Shown piece by piece: positions 9,162 to 64,000 of a DNA stretch of 64,000 nt (positions are counted from its first letter, which is position 1; the number at the start of each line of letters is the position of its first letter). The DNA is from Pseudovirgaria hyperparasitica (taxonomy: Eukaryota). The notes below the pieces were generated by a model. That model saw only the letters and a list, made by a program, of their open reading frames with translations, did not search any database and was not told the origin of the DNA. Location of the stretch: the NCBI GenBank assembly GCA_010093815.1, contig ML996581.1, one strand, 5' to 3'. Both the position numbers and the translations under genes were made by a program.

Positions 9162-10843
9162 GAACATGACCGGCAACATCCACGTATCAATCAATCTATC
9201 CAGCTGAGTGTCAGACTTCGTTGTACACCAGGGGGAGGCGTGTCCGCCCTCAGCCTAAAAAGCAGGGCGTCCTCGATGCTCGATATAATTACTCCGTCGG
9301 GCAACGCAAGTCCGTTCCAGATGCATTCCTTCTCTCCTACGCTCAAAAAACATTGAGATATCGCCCTTTGCATAGCCTCTCTTTCATGCATACATGCAGT
9401 ACAGGTTTGAATGGAGAAGGGGGTTCCACAGCGCGTGCTGGCGGCCGAGTAGTCCGTTACACACTCCCCCCCAACACCCCCCCAACGCAGGTTTCCCAAT
9501 GTAAGGTTTATTTCAGACGTGGGATTGTCGTGCGTTGAGTTGCTTCCCCCTTGCTTGTGTTGTGGTACGTCGCGAGTCTGTCCGTGTTACTTCTAATGCC
9601 CGATGTCGGGTCTATTTTTGGGGGTTCTTTGTGTGTATGGGCGTCGGTGTGCTGGCCTGGGTTTGATGGGTGTCTGTTTGTCTGACACTCGCATGGACAT
9701 GCAAGGGGGTGGATGGTGCTATGGATGGTGCTATGAATCGTCCTGTGTCTGCACAGCCGCGAATCACATGGGCATGGGATAATACGGAGGGAATGTGGAT
9801 GTTCCGTCCTTGCCGGTTTACTTTCAGTCGAGCATGTGATGTTTGAGTGACTGGGATAGGGGTTATGGTTTGTATTTTGGATCCTTTGTTGGAATGTATT
9901 TAATAGGTGGGCGTGTGATGTGTTTTGTTTTATGGTTTGGTTCTGTCTGGCTTTGTCTGGCTCTGTCTGGCCTGTGGAAAAGACGTGGGGACTAGCCAAC
10001 CGGTAGCAAGACCGCGGATAGGAAACTTGACTTGATATAGCGCCGATCAGCAAGACTCATGGATAGCCAACGGGGCCCGGGGTCGACGGTTGAATAGGGC
10101 GTTTGGGAGATTTGGGAAGCTATGGAGATGGGTACGGGTACAGTAACTTCAAATTCGATATAGTCAGGTATATCACGAAATTTGCGAAACGAAGATGTCA
10201 AGTATGCACAAACATCTTTACAGATTCAGCCGATCATGTATCACCATGCCAGTGGTCTATAGAAAGGAAGCACGACCGTGCTTGAATCTAGCAAGGTCGC
10301 GGGCTATGCTTATGCTGATTTGAATGGATACTAGATGCTCCAGGTCTAGGTCTGATAGAGTGGGAGACCGTGTTGAGATCTGTGGATTGGGTGATTTGGG
10401 TTGCTGTGTTGATGATACGGTCATGTCATACCCATCATCACCAATTCAGGTATAGAGTAAAGATGAACCACGTACAGAGTAAACAAAAACTCCGTACAAA
10501 CGATGACTGCCCATGATAGGAGTTTAGCCCTAATTACTCTACGTAGCTCTCAGTGTAGGAGTCATGCAAGGACAATGGTAGAACGTGCAAGGTGCTGTGT
10601 TAGGTGGATGGTGACCGACTGAACACGTGCAGAAAAAGGGGATACTAAGCATGAACCGATATAAACCTCTAATTGTCCTTCGTAAACTTCTGCGAGTAAA
10701 TTTGACTGCCTGAAGCCGGTTTTATGGTTTGTTGCTTGTTGCTGGTCCTTGTAGGCTTGCTACTGTCTTTATTGCGGTGATGATACTGGTGATTCGTTTC
10801 TCCGAGACGTCAAAGTGGGTGTTCGAGTGTCTGAGCCGTTCTG

Positions 10844-10885
10844 AGTAACCTAATGTGCAAAAGTAACCTAATGTGCAAAAGTAAC
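10844..10885. repeat. Tandem 18-bp duplication (AGTAACCTAATGTGCAAA x2.3)
   Basis: Exact copies at 10844-10861 and 10862-10879 plus a partial third. Confidence 0.9.
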
Positions 10886-11006
10886 TGACCATGATGTCTA
10901 CCACAAGTCTTTTGCTAATGGACGTGGAGGAGTTTGATGTCTGAAATTTAAGGCTACCGTCAGGGTGCAGCTAAAGATAGATTAGCGAGCCTGAGGCCCT
11001 GAGCCA

Positions 11007-11034
11007 CCACGTCACGGCAGTGGAGCGCCACGTG
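11007..11034. promoter_or_regulatory. Candidate UPR elements (bZIP Hac1/XBP1-type ACGT-core sites) upstream of ERO1
   Basis: CCACGTCA (11007-11014, reverse complement of TGACGTGG) and GCCACGTG (11027-11034), about 500 bp upstream of the ERO1 ATG. ERO1 is an established UPR target. Confidence 0.55.
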
Positions 11035-11517
11035 CGCCATCCGAACCGACAAAGGACACGCTGCTTCGACCGGACAAAGTGAGGACTGCATTTGCATTTT
11101 ACGCTCGTTTCTCGATGAACATAATTCCTGTCTGTGGTTCAGCAATCCCTTTGCATACCTGCGCTCTCTTCTATGCTATACTCGACTAGTCAATGAGATC
11201 AAGTCTAGGACTAAGCCGCTCCTTCCACCTTAAGACCTTCCGCCTACCAGGTTCACCCCGGCTCAGGAAAGTCTTAGCACTTCAACACCTGGCCTCTTCG
11301 CCTCAGGACCCTTTACACCAGAAGATACTGTGACATCTGTGTTCAACAGAGTATTTGCGCTATATATCGCCAATCTGTAAGTGCTGTGTCCTGCTGTCCG
11401 TCCCCCGGTACTGCTCACCAACCTTCTGCACCTCTGGGATGCGCTTGACACACTCGCTGACTTTCGGATCCGCATAGCTCACATAGAACGTTCCGTGCAC
11501 ACTCGAGCCCTCGTAAT

Positions 11518-54100: not shown

Positions 54101-55594
54101 ACATGCTAACACGCGAAGCTTGTCGAATTGATGCATGGTAGCATTGGACTAGAATCAAAGCTGGGTGTCGGAACGAAGACCACCTTCTCGATACCTTTCA
54201 GCAAGGGACAGTACTCGAACGAAGGATCTCCTATCATAGCCTTAGGGTCGATACCAGATCGCCTACAGTCGGATGTTTCGGTGTCATGTGGAAGCTCCGA
54301 GGACCTAACACCACCATCGACACCTACAGTTGGTAATGGTGTGGCTAGTAGTCACCTCAATAGAGCAACGAGTGCACGAAGGACATCACATCAGCACAAT
54401 AGTGGCCCGGTGACAGCTCGCGGTGTTTTACCAAACGATCTACTCAATTTGACCGACGAAGAGAGACAGAAAATCGAAATCTTGGTGGTAGAAGACAACC
54501 CGATCAATCAACAGATTGCGCTCAAGACTATTCGAAAGCTCCACTTCTCCGTGAGAGCTGTATGGAACGGTCAAGAAGCACTAGATTACCTTAACGCCGC
54601 TCCAGCGCCAGGTCATCCAATGCCTAACATCGTGTTGATGGACGTTCAGATGCCGGGTGAGTACGAATTTGAGAGACATGCTGGTCACGACCACTTACAC
54701 CCCGTAGTACTCGATGGCTATGATGCCACACGACGTATTCGTAGGTTCGAAAACCCTGAAGTTCGAAATGTTCATGTTATTGCAATGACAGCGTCAGCCA
54801 TTCAAGGCGACAAAGAAAAGTGCGAAAAAGCAGGCATGGACGACTACCTGGCGAAACCCGTGAAAGGCAAGATTCTAGAGAAGATGCTGCTCAAGTGGGC
54901 GATTGCTGGCAACAAGCGCAGTAAAAAAGAAAATCATAAACCCAGGCCCTTGCCACTCAACGACTCCTCTAAATCCAAACCTTCCACATCTTCCACACCC
55001 TCGCCACCGTCCTCCATCCTCTCACCTGCGCACGGATCTCTCGATGCTAAGCTCGATAGCCTCGAGTTTCACCGTAACACAACACTCCTCCTTGCCTCGG
55101 AGTCGAACTCGGACTCACAACTGCGGCGCGCACAGGACGAAGAACAAGCTGCGTACTCACGCGACAACAAACTCCTCTTGGCATCCGAGAATCCACAGGC
55201 AGAGCCTATCTCTGTGCTTGAAGCTAATCTTCCAGCTATCCGCGGTATCGACGAGCAGACTGACGACCACTCCAGTCATGCGCTTACGGAGGAGAATATT
55301 GGACGCTTGGCGACGGAACAGCATCGTCGGAGGGGCGATCTCAAGCGGGGTGACTCCCTTTCCGCAGTGCCACAACTAAAGGCCGAGCTTAGCTATGACA
55401 GTCTGAAGGTACATCCCGAAACGAACGACAGTCCACAGGCCCCGGCGGATAGGGGTAGTCGCAGTAGTGAACAGCCGGGAAAGAGTAGTAGGTTGGGGGT
55501 ACCAAGACCGAGCTTACTGTCAAGGAAATATGGAAGCGAGCAGACGGTCACACCAGAGTCGAGTCTGGTTGAACAGCAGCAGCAAAATCAGTAA
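51120..55594 (+). CDS. Cytosolic hybrid sensor histidine kinase (PAS/PAC-HisKA-HATPase-receiver), about 1425 aa; introns 51579-51627, 53440-53488, 54071-54118, 54657-54707
   Basis: PAS/PAC (WFSQRWYDFTG...EYRVKRRDGQWRW...KWFGTCADIHE); H-box FLANMSHEIRTP; N box; DTGIG; GGTGLGL; receiver LVVEDN...MDVQMPVLDGY...KP. The architecture suggests the multi-PAS group V (HHK2/NIK-2-like), but the group is inferred. Confidence 0.93.
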
Positions 55595-56272
55595 TTTTTA
55601 CCGGTCATGAGAGAGTTTATGAAGATGGGTATTGGCACTTGGACATATCGCATGGATTTGGCGTAAATGGAGTTTTCACTGGCCTGACAAGCCTGAGGGC
55701 TCACTGCATATTTCTCTTTTGTTTCGATCTATAGACAGTGCTTGAATGGGCCAGGCATATATGGGTTACAAAATCGCATGAGGATACGCCCGGTCGGTTT
55801 GGTGGTTGGATCATATCCTGATATCATTGAACGCATAAGCAAATGAGGAATCCATCCAGAAAATGCGCTGTATGTCGTTTGAGCTAGAAGAATATATGTA
55901 TCCGTCCAGCTCTAGTAAGATGACAGTGGAAGTAAACAAAGGCTACAGTCATTGTGTATGTCTGATTCAGCTTATCATTTTACTTAACACTCGAAACCCT
56001 CTTTCTGACGCAAAGTTGATTCGATCCCATAATATTATTATGGAACACAATTGTTTAATGTAATGTTCTCTGCACTGTTCCGGTGGACGTCTTTCTGATG
56101 GCTTTTATGGCCCCTTTAGTGAGTTACGTAATCATGGAAGCCCTAGTAGCTAAACCTCACGACCCAGTAGCGCGGATCGCGCGTCACATAGCTGTGTACA
56201 TCCTCAAAAACTCTACCGACTTTTCTGTAGAACCACTCCAAGGCTTCACACCTCTGATCTCTCAAAACCAAT

Positions 56273-56952
56273 ATGAACTCTCCTCCCTCAGACAACGACA
56301 ATGATGACCTCGGCCCAGCCAGGGAGCCCACCCCGCAAGCGCGACCGCCTCCTCGCGAGAAAACCCAGATTCCCAAGCAAGTTGCGCGTGTAAAAGAGAG
56401 GCCGAGCGGAGACGAAGAGGTGGGTAGCTCACTGAAACTCGGCGAATTCCAGGGCGTGCACAGTTTGTCTGTGTCGGAAGCGCGTATTTTGGTCAATGCT
56501 GTGTTCAAGGACCGCAAGCAGCGAAGGCCAAATTGGAATTGGGACAAGGAGTGAGTGGTTCTGGCAGACTTTGCTGAACTTGTGCAGTCATTGTTCTGTG
56601 AAGAGATATTGGAGAAGGCATTATTATGCTAATATTTGCATTCAGGAATATCACGAAGATGGTAGACTACTTGGAGGAGTTCTCGAGGTTTAAGCAGACG
56701 GAAGCTAATGAGTCGCTTGAAAGAGTGCTGGATCAACGCCGTGAGCTGGAGTATTTTGAGCGCTCCCAACTTGGTATGCTTGCTTCACTTGGGTGATGTT
56801 ATCTGAGCTGATTTCTTGTAACAGCCAATTTATGCCCGGAGAGTGCAGATGAAGCAAAAACCCTCATCCCTTCCATCACGAACAAGATCAGCGATGACGA
56901 TCTACAAGAGCTTCTAAACGAGATCGGAAAGCTCAGGCAATTTGCCGAGTGA
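56273..56952 (+). CDS. RPB4: RNA polymerase II subunit Rpb4, 177 aa; introns 56551-56645 and 56774-56824
   Basis: GDEE...LKLGEFQGVHSLSVSEAR; DYLEEFSRFK; FERSQLANLCPESADEAKTLIPSITNKISDDDLQELL (HRDC-like). Confidence 0.95.
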
Positions 56953-57844
56953 AAGCAGTCATCCTCATGTTATGCTATGTCTATAGCTGAGCGTCGCCTT
57001 GAGTGAAGGAGACCGGACGCCCCCTTGAACCCCAGAAAATACTGATTGAGTGTAAATGCTAGCTCGGCTGAGATATTGCTGAAACTACGCAGAGATTACA
57101 GAGCCACATCGCGGCCTCGACGTAGATCAAGTGTTGTGCTTGAGAGCTCTGCGAAGATATTTCCCCAAGCCAACGCAAAGTATTCGAGTTGGAATATCGA
57201 CATTGCTTAGGTTGTTGTTTCACCCGAAACACGGCGTATGGTCAGAGGGTGACACGCACTATATACAGTGTAGATCCTGTAGCATAAATGCAGCACTTTG
57301 CACAGACCAGCCTCTTCTCTTTACGTCCGCAATAAGAGATTATAGTTCTAAGCTCTGTCAGACTGAAGAGTTTCGTTTGCGCCATAGGCCATAAACATCA
57401 GGCTTTAACCTACGCCTTTAGACCTTGCGGCATTTCTGTCGAGCAGTACAATGCAGCAGTATACGACAATGAATATCGGGCCCAAGAAGTTGTTCGGCAT
57501 CGAAGCCAAGCCGAAACTTCGGTGCCTCTTTCGTTCCCTTTGCCAGCAGTAGGCTTCAGGTTTGATACATGAATGCTTTTCGATGATCCGCATGCATACA
57601 GGGCTGCTCCTTTGGATAGACCGCATACATCATTTGGACTAATAACAATGCGTTCACCTCTATTTCAATTGCATATCTTGAACGTTTAACCGCTCCATGG
57701 GTTTGTGTCTAGTCAAATCCTTACTGTATATGTATCGGTACAAAGAAGCCTGAGAGGCCCGATGACATTGGCGCGTCGCAGAATACAAATACAATAACTT
57801 CGCTATATACAGGCAGATACGAATAAGGGGTATAACTATCAAAT

Positions 57845-60185
57845 CTAATGCACAGCGCAAACCTCTGGGTGATCCTTGCTTACCAGGCATAACGCCTGCG
57901 CTGGGACGCCAAAGGATCGAACAGGCCCTGCAGCAACGGCTGTTCCTGGGCTGTATCTGTCACACTGTTCCGCTCCCTTGATACTCATATCAACAAGGTT
58001 TTGCCCGCTGATGCAACTGTGTCCAGTAAGGCCACCCCCAAAGCGAGGATCTTTGTCGGCGATGACGAAAGCGCATGAATAGTACTCCTTAATCACACAC
58101 CAGGAGCTCAGGACTTCGCCCTTGGCGTTGAGAGTCTTGCCATGTCGGATACAAGCCTTGTCTGGGGATGAGGTGCAGAACTCCGCATTCTCATTAGGAG
58201 TCTGGTCCTGCACGATCGATCGACAGTCAGACATTCTGGCGCCGCTGCCTCTATAACCACCGGCGCAGTCGATAGTACCGTCAGATCTAGAGGGAAATAT
58301 CCGTGCGACCGGTCCATTGAGTGTGGAGTCGCCAGAGAAAGCTTCGTGTTTCGATCCTTCGCCGTTCAAAGGGCGGAAACCGGCCTCGTAAAATTGACCG
58401 TAGTCCGGACCATTCCACCAGCCTTTGTTGGGACCATTCTTGATACACTGGTTGATGACTTCCCCAATTTTTAGCATGCGATCTCGAAGATCTCCTCCAT
58501 ACAGTAGACTCACCATTCTCAGTAGTGTCCCAGCATTGTTGCCACTGGGAGCCTTGTGAGGGACTGCCACGGTATATGTACGCCTCTATATTACCTTCGA
58601 TAGCCACAGAGATTTCACAATCGGTCTTTGTGTCCCCCTGTTTGATTTTCACGTAGGAGCTGTCCAATCCTGCCGGAGTCTCACACTTATTGTTACATAT
58701 AACTAACGTACCGTTAGTCATAAATCGGTATCGTAGAGTAGAAATGTATTCACCTTCTCGCATTCGAGAGATCAGTGCATTCGGGTCTAGAGTCTCCGTT
58801 GTTGATATCAACTTCTCTGGAACGCTCTGGACGTTTTTGTCTCTGCAGGTCACTTTCTTCGGATCCGCGGTAGAATCAGGACCCGCAGGCATCTTACCCA
58901 ACTCTGGAAGCCCTGCTAAAGCAGCTTGCGCCTCAATGAGACGTGCTACATTAAACGGCTCGCAAGGCGGCTCTTGCTTAGATTCGTCCCAGCAATCACA
59001 CCCTTTCCAGAGGTCGTTGTCGTCCGCAAGACCCTTACATTTGCCATCGGCATCTATGCCGCCACATTCGAAGGCAGCTAATATTTCGTCGCCAGTTGGA
59101 CACTCTTCTTTGGGCTCGCAGTCGCAATCCCTGTCAGGTCCTTGGGTACATTTATTTGAATCGTCACCTTTGCATGTCTCATCCGAGCAAGTCGGTTTGT
59201 GCTCTTGCTTGCATTCGTCCTTACAAGGACAGCCAGTGTTCTCGCCAGATTGACACCAGCCCTGCTTGCCATCGCATTCAGAACATTTTGGTAGACTTGT
59301 CGTGGAACATTGCTTCTTGGGATGGCCCGTACCTGGAGGTGGAGGCGGGAACCCCATAGGAGTAATTGGGAATGGGATAATGAGCGGCGGTAATTCGACA
59401 CTGCTTGCCATCAGCAAAGTTTGACGAGTCACTTTCAGCTTCCGGGCACTTACCCCCTTCCTCCACCGCATGAACAGCCCTTGTAGGGCTGACCATACTG
59501 AGCCGTCAAGCCTGTACACTTACCACCACCAGCATCACCGCCACAATGGTTACAGTCTTTAATGCCGCCATCAGGACAGCAAGAGCAATGAGTGAATAAT
59601 CCGCTTTTCCCAGACTTGTCCTTCACTACCATTCTAGCATCGCAGACCCCCGGGACTTTGGTATTGCCACCGCAATTTGGATCGGTACAGGTTTGCGTGG
59701 TTTTGCCGTTGCTTTCAGGACAGACCTTGCTGTCATCCACCGGAAAACCTCCACCGTTGAGATCGCACTGGCAGCCTTTATACGCGATGCCTGTCTCGCC
59801 GCTTCCCTTGCATATCCCCATACCTGTGATTGCATCACCTCCGCATTGAGAACAGGCTAGGGAATCAGATTCGGGGCAACAGCCGCATATCGGGAACCCG
59901 TTTGAGGCCTGGATATGGCAGACCCCGTCGAGAGGGATATCTTCACACATCTTATCGGTACATTTCACTGCATTTCTTAAGTGTGATTCCAAAAATTTGC
60001 ATCGATTTTTATAACTTACGGGGCGGAAGCCCGTTGTCCTGAGGACATGGACTATTTGGTCGGAATGTTAGTTGCTGGCGAGGCAGCAATATAGCTCCGA
60101 CATCTGGTATGCCGACAGCGTGTACGGCTGTAGATAGAACGGCGACGGCGAAGCCTAGCACTAACTGTGATGTCATTTTGGCCAT
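57845..60185 (-). CDS. Large secreted cysteine-rich modular protein, 709 aa; exons 60185-60020, 59967-59454, 59400-58754, 58702-58514, 58458-57845
   Basis: Signal peptide MAKMTSQLVLGFAVAVLSTAVHA, then LLPRQ. Four GT-AG introns of 51-55 nt join three track ORFs and an unlisted first exon into one 2130-nt frame. Tandem 6-Cys modules. Confidence 0.8.
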
Positions 60186-60705
60186 CTCAGAGAGTCAAGT
60201 CGAGGATTGTGTGAAGAAGAATCGCTGCACACGAAGGCCAGAGAGCTGTATTTTATTGGTAGTTTCATGATACGCACGGGTAGATGCTTCAGGTCAGACA
60301 GTCGTGCAGGACTGAAACATTTCTCGCACGGTCTTAAAAATTTGCTACATTCAGTAACAAAAGACTCGAATACAGTCTGCATTAAGTACGGATCATCTAT
60401 TATCGCGTCACCGACAATCCTTTATCTTTGGTTTGTTTTTAACGTCACTAAGGTTGAATAAATGCAAAGTTTCCTTGTTGAGATTTAGAGCTGGCTAACT
60501 CATTGTTCGATACTAACTCAAAATCTCTATAGAACCTATAATTAGACATAGGTACGTACAATCCGAATCCATACTAGCCCAGCCTAGGCCGAGATGCTAA
60601 TAGAGAATATAAAGCTTAATCTACGCCTTAAGAAGATTGATAAGACGGTATTATTTAGATATAAGTAGTTAGATCGATTATCCTAGATTAAATGAGGTGA
60701 GGCAT

Positions 60706-60820
60706 ATATCTTGTTTCAAGCTAAATTTAGGTATTGTTAGAGCCATAAGTCGAAAATGATTGGTCAAGGCCTTCAGCCTAAGGCTTCAACAATACTTAAA
60801 TTTAGCCTCAGACAAGATCT
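60706..60820. repeat. Degenerate inverted repeat (49-bp arms, 17-bp spacer) in a TpA-rich patch; possible MITE or transposon relic
   Basis: 60706-60754 versus the reverse complement of 60772-60820 gives 38/49 identity by manual alignment, and 8 of the 11 mismatches are transitions. Confidence 0.75.
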
Positions 60821-61146
60821 AGGCTATATCCAGATATATACCTCACTTGATCTAATTTAATATAAGCAATCCAAGTCCCTTAGTATAGCATCTAACCAAT
60901 CATACAGTCCTAACTTGTATCCGATCATGTATGCCTGTAACGGAGCGGACAGTAAATGATGAGAAGGAGGCAGAAACTCTGCATTTGAAACATGCAAGAT
61001 CACCGCACGTCTTATTCAGCTATAACTACGTTGCTTTGAAAATTGAAGCCAGTTATCTCATCTGTACTTGTCTAATCCTCACTGCCTTCTCTTTACCAAG
61101 CTTTGTCTGTCTTTCCTGCTAAGCCCTGTTCGTCCTCGGTCTCATT

Positions 61147-62173
61147 ATGGTTGCTCTATTCTTCCTATCTACATTCGCTCTTTTCGCACCTTCTTTGGCA
61201 TTAACCTACTACATGGATACCTCATGCAATCCCTATCCAGCCGTAGGCCGGGCCCTGCCAGAAGCTCTCACCATGGCAAGACGCTCTAATGCCCGTCTCG
61301 GAGCCAATGATCCAGACATCCAAGTAGCCTTTCAACGCATCTTCAATACTGGCACGGACAATGGCGCCGCCGTTGCCGAGGTCCGACGCATCATGGGTGG
61401 TATTGCAGATATGACCGAGACCAACGACCGCGAAAGCTCTGGTGTGCGCATCTACTGCAATGAAGACAGGTGGTCCCTGCAAAAAGACCGCGAGAGGACC
61501 AACAAACTGATTAAAAAAAATTCGAGCCGAAATCCCGGCGATCAGATCTGGATCGACACCACGAACAACATTCCTTATGCTGGTCCGCCTGGTTGTAAAG
61601 TCCAAGATAGGATCGGTCAGGTCTTTCACTGGCCGCGACTACCACTGCAGGCCTCTCATTCAACCATGTCGCTCTGCAAGCCGTGGATTGAGGATCGTAT
61701 TGCAACGATAAAAGAGCAGGGCAAGAGAGATTTTTCCAGATTACGGCTGACCGGGGCCGGATTGTCACAGCTACTCAGTTTTATTGTGTTGCATGAATTG
61801 ACACATGTTCCGCCATTCCGTAGTAAGTAGTCTTTTACTAAGAAGACAGAGAGAGATCACCGCTAACACGCTTCCCAGCCAAGGATGTACATCCTGCGTA
61901 TGAATGGAATAATGTCGTTTCAAAGAGCACTGCTGATGCAATCAGGAATGCGGAGAATTATGGTACGATAAACCTGTCCCACCTGCGAAACCTGTGTCTT
62001 CTGTGTTTATAATAACCGTTGTAACAGCATTCTTTGGTCTGCTTGCTGTGCTTGGAGACGCGAATTATAAGCTTGAACATACTAAGCCAGAACAGAACTG
62101 GTCCGGTTTGCTCATCCATACACCTACCATCTGGCCTAGACAACTGTTCAATAATGTACGGTCTATAAGCTGA
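61147..62173 (+). CDS. Secreted zinc metalloprotease-like protein (HEXXH+D, M35/aspzincin-like), 301 aa; introns 61823-61878 and 61963-62027
   Basis: Signal peptide; FQRIF; VLHELTH followed after splicing by TKDVHPAYEW and AIRNAENYAFFG, matching the M35 GTxDxxYG and NADSY positions. Confidence 0.8.
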
Positions 62174-62562
62174 TGCAAAGATAGAATTGTCAGAATGCGT
62201 GACCTAATATGCTAGGGTCTTGTCGGTACTATTGCTAGAATGGTAGATGTTTTTGGGAAAGTATGAATTCAACGCTCGCGTGATGCGCCACCACTGTTTT
62301 CTGTTCGTACTTGACTTTGATTGGCTACCAATGAATTCTTGAGATTCATTGTTCTGATATTAGGTTGTTAGTTTCGAACAATACATTATTAACTGAAAGC
62401 TCTTACGTTATCCATATTAACTCCATGGGTGAGACTGCATTAGCGTTATGAAACCTGCCAGGCAGAATTCGGTTTTGTAGAGCATCGATGTCGATATTTT
62501 TGGGTATTATTGCACTGATATATATGTGTCCATTCAAGCTAACTCATCACTAGTTAGGTGCT

Positions 62563-63867
62563 TCATGCCTTTACTATATCATTGGTCGAGATATCAGTCT
62601 GCGCATAACTTTCTGCGTTGACCATCGGTGGCTTGATAGGCAGCAAGAACAACGAGGCCCCAATAGCAATGACCAATAATCTCCAGAGGATACTGACCAC
62701 TGTGTCAGTGATATATGCAGGTCCCCAATGATGGTATTCCAGTGGGCCCACGTGAGTGCCAATAATCTGTTCCAACCCCTTCAGGCAGAACAGGGACGAC
62801 ACGATAATGAGAGGGGATCGGAAGCGAGTCACCTCCTATAAGAATGGACGATCAGCTTCAATACCCGTAAGAGTCGGTCACCTTCGTAGACTTACGTATG
62901 CCAGATTGTATGGTTCGGACTGGTTGTACTTATCCTGTGCATCAAGATCCATTGCATTCGCCGGTCGAGGCGGGTAGCAATCTCGTTTGACCTTCCAAAC
63001 ATACACTACGCTGCCAATCATGAAGAGAGACCAAACAACCATGACCGACTCGTACCCGTTGCCAATGTGTTTCGCTTTGTCAAAATCACCAAACTCCCCC
63101 AGGTTGAGAGCATTGTCATACGTGATGCTCTGTGTCCCATGATGCGCAATCATGATCCAGTACGCTGTAAGAAAGCCCCAAGACACCGCCGTCAAGGCGC
63201 ACATGAAGAAAGCCAAAGCCCATGCGACGTATATGAACGTGTTGGCAAGCGAACGCTTCATATAGAGTGCCCGGAAGTAACTCGTATACTTCTTCATCGC
63301 GTATATGGCATAGCCCAGCTCCGTGATGCGCCACAGCAGCTCGCTGAAGACGGGGTAGTAGAAGAAGGTAAAGGGCCTTAGTTTCCAGTCCATGAAGGAT
63401 GTGAGCGTGATGATATCGAGCACCTGGACACTTACAAGCACACACACAAGTCAGCAGTAAGCACAAGGCAGAGAGGACACCAGAGCACATCTCACACTAT
63501 GAAGCACAGCGTACACGCGATAACGCTATATCTCTTCAAGCCCTCAATCACTCTAGCTTTACGCGTCAGGATCCCCTCGCGCGTCCCGATAACGCCCTGC
63601 ATAAACATCACAACCACCCCAAGCATGATCGTAATGATCAGAAATGCAAGGAGAGCGATTGGCGAGCGCTCCTGCTCGTACACATCAGCTTATGGGATTT
63701 TCCGCGCAGTGCACAAACAGACGTACGCATTCTTGTGCATTAAGCAGGACGCGTGCCTTGCCCGTTAACGTCGTGACATCGACGGGCACAAACCTAGGAG
63801 CGCACATGTTCCATGATCGCGCAGGGCCTGGGTATCGATTGCTCCCAAAACCAGTGGTGCGCACCAT
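62563..63867 (-). CDS. Orphan multi-pass membrane protein with about 7 TM helices, about 374 aa; exons 63867-63727, 63671-63496, 63430-62896, 62835-62563
   Basis: Four track ORFs join in frame through GT-AG introns with GCTGAY branch points; seven hydrophobic segments. The start could instead be the ATG at 63807. Confidence 0.72.
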
Positions 63868-64000
63868 GTTTTGCGACGCTGGGTGATGTCGGGGGAGGGT
63901 GGAAGGGAATCAGACAATGCGGTCTTGCGATGGACATTTTGGCGGGGCCAGGGGTCATCTTAAAGCTCGACTATGGTATACATTGAATCCACTTCGCTAG

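Follow-up and report, generated by a model that had tools for sequence, protein, structure and literature searches.

Do the three genes that follow RPB4 in Pseudovirgaria hyperparasitica act together, and what might they do? The question arises in a 64,000-nucleotide stretch of this organism's genome (the window). P. hyperparasitica is a mycoparasite that attacks rust sori (PMC3317363). A first-pass annotation of the window described the three genes (57845-63867) as lacking any housekeeping identity, and it proposed that they form an effector or antagonism module.

Three transcribed genes beyond RPB4

The coordinates were right and the genes are real. The gene adjoining them upstream is indeed RPB4 (Pfam PF03874, 43.7 bits). 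Nearly all of the introns of the three genes, which we will call A, B, and C, are skipped in spliced transcript contigs from two runs (X1 and X2). The gene models are demonstrated, as are their transcription and splicing. None of the three products matches any Pfam family at or above the cut-off.

Gene A lies on the minus strand, from the ATG at 60185 to the stop at 57845, and encodes a modular, Cys-rich protein of 709 amino acids that is predicted to be secreted. The joined frame of its five exons (60185-60020, 59967-59454, 59400-58754, 58702-58514, and 58458-57845) is open. One X1 transcript contig lacks the introns at 59453-59401, 58753-58703, and 58513-58459; the intron at 60019-59968 was placed by eye only. 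Gene B lies on the plus strand, with transcript and coding sequence spanning 60841..62173. It encodes 301 amino acids in three exons (61147-61822, 61879-61962, and 62028-62173), and both introns are skipped in the contigs from X1 and from X2. These contigs begin at 60841, which implies a 5' UTR of at least 306 nt. The product is identical, at every letter, to the public protein P0006. Gene C (63867..62563, minus strand) encodes an orphan multi-pass membrane protein of 374 amino acids. All three coding introns between its four exons (63867-63727, 63671-63496, 63430-62896, and 62835-62563) are skipped in transcript contigs.

Genes A and B are a conserved divergent pair

Genes A and B are transcribed away from each other. 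The region between them had been given as 960 bp, and from start codon to start codon we measured 961 bp (60186..61146), of which 60328-60840 is covered by no transcript contig. The decayed inverted repeat that had been noted in this region is also real. It is an AT-rich hairpin at 60669..60874 whose arms, of 53-58 nt, match at 71-77%. BLAST of the repeat against its own reverse complement gives E = 3e-10, and its DNA fold has z = -4.9, a level of folding that 0 of 200 shuffles reached. The repeat is present as a single copy within the 64-kb window, and it was not found at the related locus described next; it appears to be lineage-specific.

That locus (L001), from another fungus, takes up 21 kb of a metagenome contig whose full length is 155,762 nt. 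An orthologue of gene A on its minus strand is 70%, 57-68%, and 62% identical to the three exon translations, and a plus-strand orthologue of gene B is 53% identical over residues 1-301. As in the window, the two are head to head, with start codons 607 bp apart. When we compared L001 to the entire 64-kb window with tblastx, the real matches lay over A and B only, and the remainder scored 25.4 bits or less. The genes that flank the pair in L001 are other genes, none of which is shared with the window. Because L001 keeps the same head-to-head layout among unrelated genes, A and B are a conserved pair outside of synteny.

A second co-occurrence is probable, because the listings for P0013 (from the gene B family) and P0030 (from the family of gene A's C-terminal domain) agree: each is listed as 2 contigs, the longest of 81,040 nt. 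They probably share one further contig. The adjacency of A and B was checked in DNA for one other contig (L001), while the 81,040-nt case rests on the matching listings. Both families are rare and have the same narrow distribution. Three of the four matches to gene B are close relatives from metagenome or run assemblies only (the fourth is the window's own protein). Similarly, the window's own protein aside, metagenome or run assemblies are the only source of gene A relatives with the C-terminal domain. Gene A also has distant relatives in Hypoxylon, Chaenotheca, and Botryosphaeria, and no gene B relative from these was detected among the matches of the gene B protein search.

Since the A-B pair recurs among unrelated genes, the products of A and B probably work together. 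We also considered that all three genes might be unrelated, fast-evolving, lineage-specific neighbors without a common function, with A and B kept together only because a short shared head-to-head intergenic region is hard to split. Head-to-head pairs are reported to be common in eukaryotic genomes (PMC4089025), adjacency is DNA-verified just once, and the intergenic region has no motif or other sequence conserved with that of L001. However, the pair is intact in L001 even though both flanks are wholly different, the two families have the same narrow distribution, and a second co-occurrence is probable. Chance neighbors therefore seem to us an unlikely explanation, albeit one to be taken seriously.

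Gene C lies outside the conserved pair

The first-pass annotation had included gene C in the module as a 7-TM receptor or self-protection factor. That gene C encodes a multi-pass protein stands. Exactly seven segments is plausible yet unproven, because the number shifts with the hydropathy threshold: with the threshold at 1.6 a Kyte-Doolittle scan finds five segments, and lowering it to 1.2 gives six or seven.

The role assigned to gene C is not supported. When the three families were checked for co-occurrence, A and B were found together in L001, but tblastn with P0010, P0011, and P0012, whose best match had E = 0.62, found no relative of gene C within 10 kb of the pair in either direction. 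Among 1,835,955,588 representatives, the only relatives of gene C are P0011 and P0012, both distant. Also, no family or motif ties gene C to gene A or B. What could be said for a three-gene module is that gene C is tail to tail with gene B and that the 3' ends of the two transcripts overlap, with both covered by one contig. Furthermore, Zt-KP4, which is introduced below, is reportedly fungicidal even toward its own producer (bioRxiv 10.1101/2025.11.24.690098), so a self-protection factor is conceivable. Given the missing relatives, a module of the secreted pair plus gene C is the least probable reading that we considered. By sequence comparison, gene C is outside the conserved pair: a bystander, an unrelated orphan next door. 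Of the antagonism module as first proposed, the link between A and B survives, with L001 and the 81,040-nt listing behind it, and the membership of gene C does not.

Gene A encodes a modular protein with two domain families that are missing from Pfam

The predicted product of gene A contains 58 cysteines (8.2%). It begins with a putative signal peptide (aa 1-23; 60117..60185, minus strand, as are all the features of gene A), which we read from a hydrophobic segment in the sequence (19-residue Kyte-Doolittle peak of 2.18 at aa 8-26). This is the only hydrophobic segment of its kind; the C-terminus has no GPI-anchor-like one. Next come two large Cys modules in tandem, each about 70-85 amino acids long (aa 58-123 and 138-222; 59468..59962), as delimited by the Cys positions in translation P0001. 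The two have identical Cys spacing and are 70% identical to L001, and a Pfam scan assigns them to no family. A Pro-rich linker (aa 225-257; 59461-59310) precedes three small Cys modules (aa 258-363; 58992..59309, from the Cys positions in translation P0002), of a type that is also present in P0004 and P0005. The linkers of the protein are Pro-rich and Ser/Thr/Pro-rich.

The central conserved domain (CD, aa 412-548; 58331..58847) is split by the introns at 58753-58703 and 58513-58459. An alignment (A5) of the CDs from gene A, P0004, P0005, P0027, P0028, and L001 has 16 invariant columns. The CD matches no Pfam family at the cut-off, and just one of the five relatives that were scanned matches PF21691, weakly (E = 0.037). 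The C-terminal domain (CTD, aa 556-709; 57848..58309), a candidate for the KP4/Ecp2 fold, is represented by an alignment of 9 sequences (A4) and by a predicted model. Profiles of the CD and of the CTD have no matches among PDB sequences. The CD and the CTD represent two sequence families that are missing from Pfam. Relatives of gene A combine its parts in other arrangements; at the sequence level, domain shuffling among them is demonstrated. No chitinase, LysM, or chitin-binding domain was found by Pfam in the exon translations of gene A.

The C-terminal domain may have a KP4/Ecp2-like fold

We compared the predicted model of the CTD to 48,161 PDB representatives. The top two were Zt-KP4 (8acx_A; Z = 7.3, rmsd 3.4, 94 aligned residues, a Z that according to the tool's own note is typically reached by models without a true match) and KP4 (1kpt_B; Z = 5.1), and the third and fourth were lectins of the KP4-fold type. 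In Foldseek, chains of 8acx fill 7 of the top 9 rows, with a best E of 0.016 and a probability of 0.89; there were no matches at E ≤ 0.001. In the cluster that neighbors the CTD by Atlas features (score 0.83), 13% of members have Hce2. The model itself is of low confidence, with a mean pLDDT of 52.7 and 77 of 154 residues below 50. By Pfam, 0 of 9 members of the CTD family match PF14856 (Hce2) or PF09044 (KP4), even at E ≤ 10, and P0003 has no Hce2 or KP4 match. Structural groups 3 and 4 of the KP4 family are described as likewise lacking matches to these two Pfam families, and Ecp2/Hce2 is placed within the KP4 structural family (PMC12382754). With low confidence, the model suggests that the CTD is closest to the fold of the KP4/Ecp2 antifungal killer toxins.

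Alternatively, gene A could encode a structural or adhesive protein of the wall or surface (a Cys-rich stalk), and gene B a general nutritional protease, with the likeness to KP4 being an artefact of a poor model. The low confidence of the model, a Z in the background range, the lack of Pfam Hce2 or KP4 matches, and the linkers would all fit. But the two chains ranked first among 48,161 are fungal toxins or effectors with the KP4 fold, a result that Foldseek supports; no GPI-anchor-like hydrophobic segment is seen at the C-terminus of gene A; and the terminus of the CTD, with its conserved Cys, is present in 9 of 9 relatives. We consider this alternative improbable.

In being predicted to be secreted, in being Cys-rich, and in having a domain whose predicted alpha/beta fold is nearest to theirs, the gene A product resembles UmV-KP4 (1kpt) and Zt-KP4-1 (8acx). 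In contrast to KP4/Ecp2 proteins, which are mostly small and single-domain, the CTD terminates a large multi-module protein. There may be precedents: Stergiopoulos et al. 2012 reportedly described Hce2 fused to chitinase, and the zymocin precursor of Kluyveromyces lactis. The likeness is an Ecp2-like domain inside a secreted protein that is large, has several domains, and matures by proteolysis (for gene A, this is a prediction). Zymocin is matured by the Golgi Kex protease, whereas here an aspzincin gene adjoins, and gene A has no chitinase domain.

Gene B encodes a putative secreted aspzincin

The N-terminus of the gene B product has a hydrophobic segment that resembles a signal peptide. The putative active-site region (61792..61901, plus strand) includes HExxH with its catalytic Glu, as HELTH (aa 216-220; 61792-61806), and, beyond the intron, an aspzincin-like stretch (aa 227-233; 61881-61901). 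Four of four relatives have H216, E217, and H220 unchanged. Pfam's Aspzincin_M35 (PF14521) aligns to aa 213-256 only (E = 2.8e-6), with 28.3 bits against a gathering score of 30; a precomputed table assigns PF14521 to P0006. In M35 proteases, the third ligand is the Asp of a GTxDxxYG motif downstream of HExxH. The corresponding region is TKDVHPAYEW in the window (HxxYE) versus KDIDPAYGW in the L001 orthologue (DxxYG). In the window's protein, the third ligand could be the His, or else the Asp that lies two residues upstream.

The Atlas model of the exact protein has a pTM of 0.80. Compared to clusters in which 97-100% of members are Aspzincin_M35, it gives TM scores of 0.48-0.73 over 166-182 residues, with predicted models on both sides. 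Lysine-specific metallo-endopeptidase is the name of the cluster that is nearest by Atlas features (0.96; 2869 members). From its motif and predicted fold, the gene B product looks like an aspzincin/M35 zinc protease. Like the M35 aspzincins (deuterolysin, 1eb6, and peptidyl-Lys metalloendopeptidase), it has HExxH and, after it, the region of the Asp-containing motif, an M35-like predicted fold, and predicted secretion. It differs from them in falling below the Pfam cut-off, in having HxxYE in place of DxxYG, and in about 80 extra residues before the active-site helix.

PF13933 (HRXXH, the Pra1/Aspf2 family) is found in 18% of the members of that nearest cluster, so we also considered metal acquisition in the manner of PRA1-ZRT1, with gene B encoding a zincophore-like zinc binder rather than a protease and with the CxxC-type modules of gene A binding metal. 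PRA1 and aspf2 share the intergenic region upstream of them with a partner gene that is co-regulated; in PRA1-ZRT1 and aspf2-zrfC, the gene for a secreted protein is head to head with that of a partner to which it is functionally coupled, an arrangement reported to be kept over long distances (PMC3386192). The likeness to our locus is that gene B belongs to the wider HRXXH/aspzincin-like superfamily and is head to head with its partner. However, gene B has HELTH in place of HRxxH and retains the catalytic Glu, its partner is no ZIP transporter (Pfam finds no Zip family in the exons of A or in C), and the Cys-rich pattern of the gene A product, which is predicted to be secreted, is typical of disulfide-bonded proteins. 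A metal-acquisition pair is very unlikely.

Proposed function

We propose that A and B are a conserved divergent pair in which a carrier of a KP4-like CTD and an aspzincin act jointly in fungal antagonism, with gene C being unrelated. We hold this tentatively, as slightly short of an even bet. Under this proposal, the gene A product would be a disulfide-rich, 709-residue carrier that ends in a KP4/Ecp2-like domain, and the gene B product would be an aspzincin-type (M35-like) zinc endopeptidase that is secreted. Both would be exported by the secretory pathway and would act outside the cell against other fungi. Most likely, the protease would cleave the linkers of the gene A product, which would release or activate the CTD; alternatively, it might cleave the same target surface that the gene A product acts on. 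(Any action of the protease on the gene A product is something we infer.) Zt-KP4-1 and UmV-KP4 are reported to inhibit fungal growth (PMC12382754). A role in antagonism would fit the low-confidence KP4/Ecp2-like fold of the CTD, from which antifungal activity is predicted, and the mycoparasitic lifestyle.

Divergent pairs of effectors have been reported from Dothideomycetes and Sordariomycetes: the products of AvrLm10A/AvrLm10B and of SIX5/Avr2 are expressed together and bind one another (PMC10346447). Similarly, A and B are divergent neighbors, are predicted to be secreted, and are paired across species amid differing genes. But in pairs of the AvrLm10A type, both secreted proteins are small and a homologue of AvrLm10A/SIX5 (KP6-fold) is always one of the two, while here a 709-residue modular protein is paired with a zinc protease. 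Our searches of Pfam, the PDB, and the Atlas gave nothing that points to AvrLm10A/SIX5 in the A-B pair.

A bolder idea, which we consider doubtful, is that the gene A family is a fungal counterpart of the bacterial polymorphic toxins. In that case, a disulfide-knotted modular carrier would hold "business" domains that can be exchanged (the KP4-like CTD, the CD, further Cys modules, or other N-terminal domains). Outside the cell, a dedicated aspzincin, inherited along with the carrier, would mature this pro-toxin, and the mycoparasite would use it on its fungal host.

Head-to-head effector pairs and KP4-fold antifungals are both known; they are recent themes, and work on them has so far concerned small, single-domain proteins from plant pathogens. 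From this locus it seems that a large modular pro-protein can serve to deliver a KP4-like domain at its end, and that such a domain can be linked genetically to a protease that is secreted. The fungus that has the locus attacks rusts. If confirmed, the A-B locus would allow protease-coupled maturation of a toxin to be tested in a case of antagonism between fungi, and it would be a possible source of anti-rust proteins.

Head-to-head genes for two probably secreted proteins are kept together in another fungus

A metagenome scan for relatives of this locus gave one confirmed locus from 418 pattern matches. This locus (L001) spans 21,042 nt within a contig of 155,762 nt from another fungus. By tblastn, it contains a complete orthologue of the putative zinc-protease gene (gene B, CDS 61147-62173 of the window, + strand) at 10001-11042 (+ strand) and, directly upstream, a complete orthologue of the gene for a Cys-rich, probably secreted protein (gene A, 57845-60185, - strand) at about 9393 to 7028 (- strand). 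The A orthologue is 70%, 57-68%, and 62% identical to three exon translations from the window. Between the two start codons lie 607 bp in L001 and 961 bp in the window.

When we compared L001 to the whole 64-kb window with tblastx, real similarity was confined to L001 7023-11105 and window 57840-62233; the remaining matches were short chance matches of at most 25.4 bits. The flanks of L001, as read from open frames, contain dipeptidase-like, lactate-dehydrogenase-like, NF-X1-type zinc-finger, P450, and P450-reductase-like genes, none of which is present in the window. Since the pair is intact and its flanks are unrelated, A and B stayed together while both sides changed. We also noticed that a member of the B family (P0013) and a member of the A family (P0030) from the same source are both recorded as "2 contigs, longest 81040", so a single contig most likely carries both; adjacency is beyond that record.

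The first-pass annotation had described A, B, and a membrane-protein gene (gene C, 62563-63867, - strand) as one module. We confirmed the three genes, and RPB4 is upstream as that annotation had stated (PF03874 match, 43.7 bits), as is a gene whose product matches the response-regulator family PF00072 (62 bits). The module itself is borne out for the secreted pair, which has the same divergent arrangement in at least one further fungus; the inclusion of gene C is wrong or unsupported. No relative of gene C was found by tblastn in the 21,042 nt of L001 (best E = 0.62). Gene C is a true orphan: among 1,835,955,588 representatives, it had three matches with E ≤ 0.001, namely itself and two fragments (27-31% identity).

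Genes A and B also have few relatives. Among 2392 candidate longer proteins, exon 3 of A had two matches, from Hypoxylon sp. and Chaenotheca gracillima (30-33% identity). A profile of the last exon of A had 12 matches (E ≤ 1) among 323 candidates of similar length: the window's own ORF, one protein from Botryosphaeria dothidea, and others from metagenome or run assemblies. Exon 1 of B had four matches among 346 candidates, which were the window's own protein and three metagenome proteins (48-56% identity).

The inverted repeat that the first-pass annotation noted between A and B (60669-60874) is statistically real. It has one copy in the window and was not found when sought in L001, so it is lineage-specific and outside the conserved part; its absence from L001 rules it out as an element of the conserved pair. 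It is perhaps a decayed foldback element. Promoter conservation between the window and the L001 intergenic region was not above chance, either by global alignment or by the count of shared 8-12-mers compared to 200 shuffles.

Both genes are transcribed and spliced

We read the exons from the sequence and then compared transcript contigs from two public sequencing runs of unspecified type (X1 and X2, from the same sample and study) to positions 55500-64000 of the window. Eleven segments bounded by GT..AG on the expected strand are missing from the contigs, which therefore come from spliced RNA. Both introns of gene B and two introns of RPB4 are skipped in X1 and X2, and the three coding introns of gene C are skipped in the contigs. 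For gene A, only X1 contigs show splicing, at 59453-59401, 58753-58703, and 58513-58459; the first intron (60019-59968) is absent from the contig joints listed and was placed from sequence alone. Homologues also support the in-frame intron of 51 nt in gene A, since they lack its 17 residues.

The products of A and B have 709 amino acids (58 of them Cys) and 301 amino acids, respectively. In hydropathy plots, each has one N-terminal hydrophobic segment that resembles a signal peptide. The B product (P0006) is identical to the public P. hyperparasitica protein EJ05DRAFT_514220. No public model of gene A from P. hyperparasitica was found at 518 amino acids or more, and a bare ORF of 223 amino acids (P0017) was the only one at 111-364 amino acids (lengths of 365-517 lay outside both searches). 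The public annotation may lack gene A or model it wrongly, although the gene is transcribed and spliced.

The annotated product of gene C is EJ05DRAFT_152658. The public model P0010 (312 amino acids) starts at an internal Met and corresponds to residues 63-374 of our 374-residue product. An upstream exon (ATG at 63867, intron 63726-63672) is spliced in frame in a transcript contig, and its 62 additional residues complete the first hydrophobic helix. One X1 contig also shows that the 3' UTR of gene C has a 53-nt GT..AG intron (62406-62354, - strand), which lies 157 nt past the stop codon.

That contig extends into the 3' end of gene B, so the transcripts of B and C converge and overlap. Similarly, a 3208-nt X1 contig (window 56256-59768) joins RPB4 (+ strand) with gene A (- strand); single contigs cross both pairs, so the transcript 3' ends overlap in both. 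The RPB4 contig of X2 stops at 57653, and gene A is nearly uncovered in that run (bins 0-2.8). In X1 gene A is covered by the contig that is merged with RPB4, and contig depth cannot rank the genes. In X1 and X2 alike, the contig for gene B begins at 60841, a position within the right arm of the inverted repeat, so the 5' UTR of B is at least 306 nt. This UTR contains an upstream ORF of 63 codons (60931-61122, + strand).

Gene A encodes a modular protein

The A product begins with a signal-peptide-like segment. Two large Cys modules then follow in tandem, with their Cys residues spaced identically, and a Pro-rich linker separates them from three small Cys modules. After a second linker come a central conserved domain (CD, residues 412-548, about 135 amino acids) and a C-terminal domain (CTD, residues 556-709, about 150 amino acids). 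In each of the nine aligned relatives, the CTD ends in a conserved terminus that contains Cys. Neither the CD nor the CTD is in Pfam; no Pfam family reached its cut-off for any exon translation of A or C, or for ten relatives. A sequence search of the PDB with P0006, the translated last exon of A (P0003), a relative (P0005), and profiles of the CD and CTD (alignments A5 and A4) found nothing below E = 0.2.

These domains occur in other combinations. In P0004, P0005, and P0028, the CD is followed by further Cys modules in place of the CTD. In P0029, a Cys module and linker are joined straight to the CTD, without the CD. And in P0022, P0023, P0033, P0024, and P0026, unrelated N-terminal regions precede the CTD. 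Many relatives are ORF fragments from eukaryotic contigs, so these architectures are minimum statements, and they show that the A family is modular and shuffles its domains. The CD and CTD show no sign of an internal duplication (hhalign probability 0.13).

In P0022, P0023, and P0033, which are from metagenomes, the region before the CTD is a conserved stretch of about 100 amino acids without a Pfam match. This stretch might act as an additional carrier or binding domain of the CTD.

The linker before the CD (58848-58991), which precedes the CTD in P0029, has a short Ala/Leu-rich motif and then a Ser/Pro-rich stretch. This motif is retained in all relatives (P0027, P0029, and L001) and might serve for processing or docking.

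The C-terminal domain of A may have a KP4-like fold

An AlphaFold2 model of the last exon of A from a two-sequence alignment was unusable (pLDDT 28.3). With a nine-sequence alignment of the CTD, mean pLDDT was 52.7 and pTM was 0.50; core residues 41-110 had block means of 58-73, and 77 of the 154 residues were below 50. We compared this model exhaustively to 48,161 PDB representatives. The first match was Zt-KP4 (8acx_A, Z = 7.3, rmsd 3.4 Å, 94 of 112 residues), and KP4, the toxin of an Ustilago virus, came second (1kpt_B, Z = 5.1). Fungal lectins were third and fourth (Z = 4.6 and 3.7), and all others were at or below 3.2. Foldseek, as an independent search, gave no match with E ≤ 0.001 but had 8acx chains in seven of the first nine rows (best E = 0.016, probability 0.89); Foldseek against the viral structures in BFVD found no meaningful match. 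At the level of a lead only, an Atlas feature search with the last exon of A pointed to an Ascomycota cluster (0.83) in which 13% of members have Hce2. Another lead is a weak match of one relative's CD to PF21691, an LDL lectin family (E = 0.037), which is listed among the KP4-fold clusters (PMC12382754).

However, the model's confidence is low, the structural-comparison tool warns that Z of 7-8 is typical of models without a true match, and none of the nine CTD family members has a Pfam Hce2 or KP4 domain. According to PMC12382754, the Ecp2/Hce2 proteins are one group within the KP4 structural family, and two further groups lack any Pfam domain. Given this model, we put a KP4-like fold for the CTD at about an even chance.

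Gene B encodes a probable divergent aspzincin-like protease

Pfam's Aspzincin_M35 matches the active-site region of B just below its cut-off (E = 2.8e-6, 28.3 bits versus 30). The only relevant match among PDB sequences was deuterolysin (1eb6), over the same stretch of B (E = 0.81). The ESM Atlas has a model of the exact B protein (pTM 0.80), which compares to M35 clusters with TM of 0.48-0.73. By Atlas features, the nearest clusters (0.96) are large families of Ascomycota that bear the name lysine-specific metallo-endopeptidase; 18% of their members carry HRXXH and 11% carry Aspzincin_M35. Our best description of B is a divergent secreted aspzincin-like zinc protease of a known kind, which is probably active.

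HExxH is intact in B. The motif that comes next reads DxxYG, as is canonical for aspzincins, in the L001 orthologue (10756-10848), but HxxYE in B of the window (61881-61901). The third zinc ligand may have changed in B, or activity may have been lost.

Proposed roles of A and B

The arrangement of A and B resembles that of the effector pairs AvrLm10A/B and SIX5/Avr2, which are encoded head to head and cooperate, as described in PMC10346447. However, A-B does not appear to be a member of this group, as no AvrLm10A/SIX5 homologue emerged from the Pfam, PDB, and Atlas comparisons. The superfamily of B also recalls the PRA1-ZRT1 locus (PMC3386192), but A-B lacks HRxxH and a ZIP transporter and is not a member. 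In one literature search, no such pair was among the matches listed, so an aspzincin paired with a KP4-like modular protein may be undescribed so far. Two points limit the finding: the structural model is weak, and a single second locus is verified by DNA.

P. hyperparasitica is a Dothideomycete described as a mycoparasite of rust sori (PMC3317363), and its genome is one of a set of 101 Dothideomycetes (PMC7082219). UmV-KP4 and Zt-KP4-1 are reported to inhibit fungal growth (PMC12382754); according to a preprint (10.1101/2025.11.24.690098), Ecp2 does so as well, and Zt-KP4 is self-inhibitory. We propose that A and B are both secreted, that the CTD of A would be a KP4/Ecp2-like antifungal domain borne on a disulfide-rich stalk, and that B would act together with A. 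Most simply, B would cut the conserved linkers of A and so release or activate the terminal domain, although we think it rather unlikely that A is processed by B. Alternatively, B might attack the same target surface as A. As for the broader proposal that A and B are functionally paired, we consider it slightly favored.
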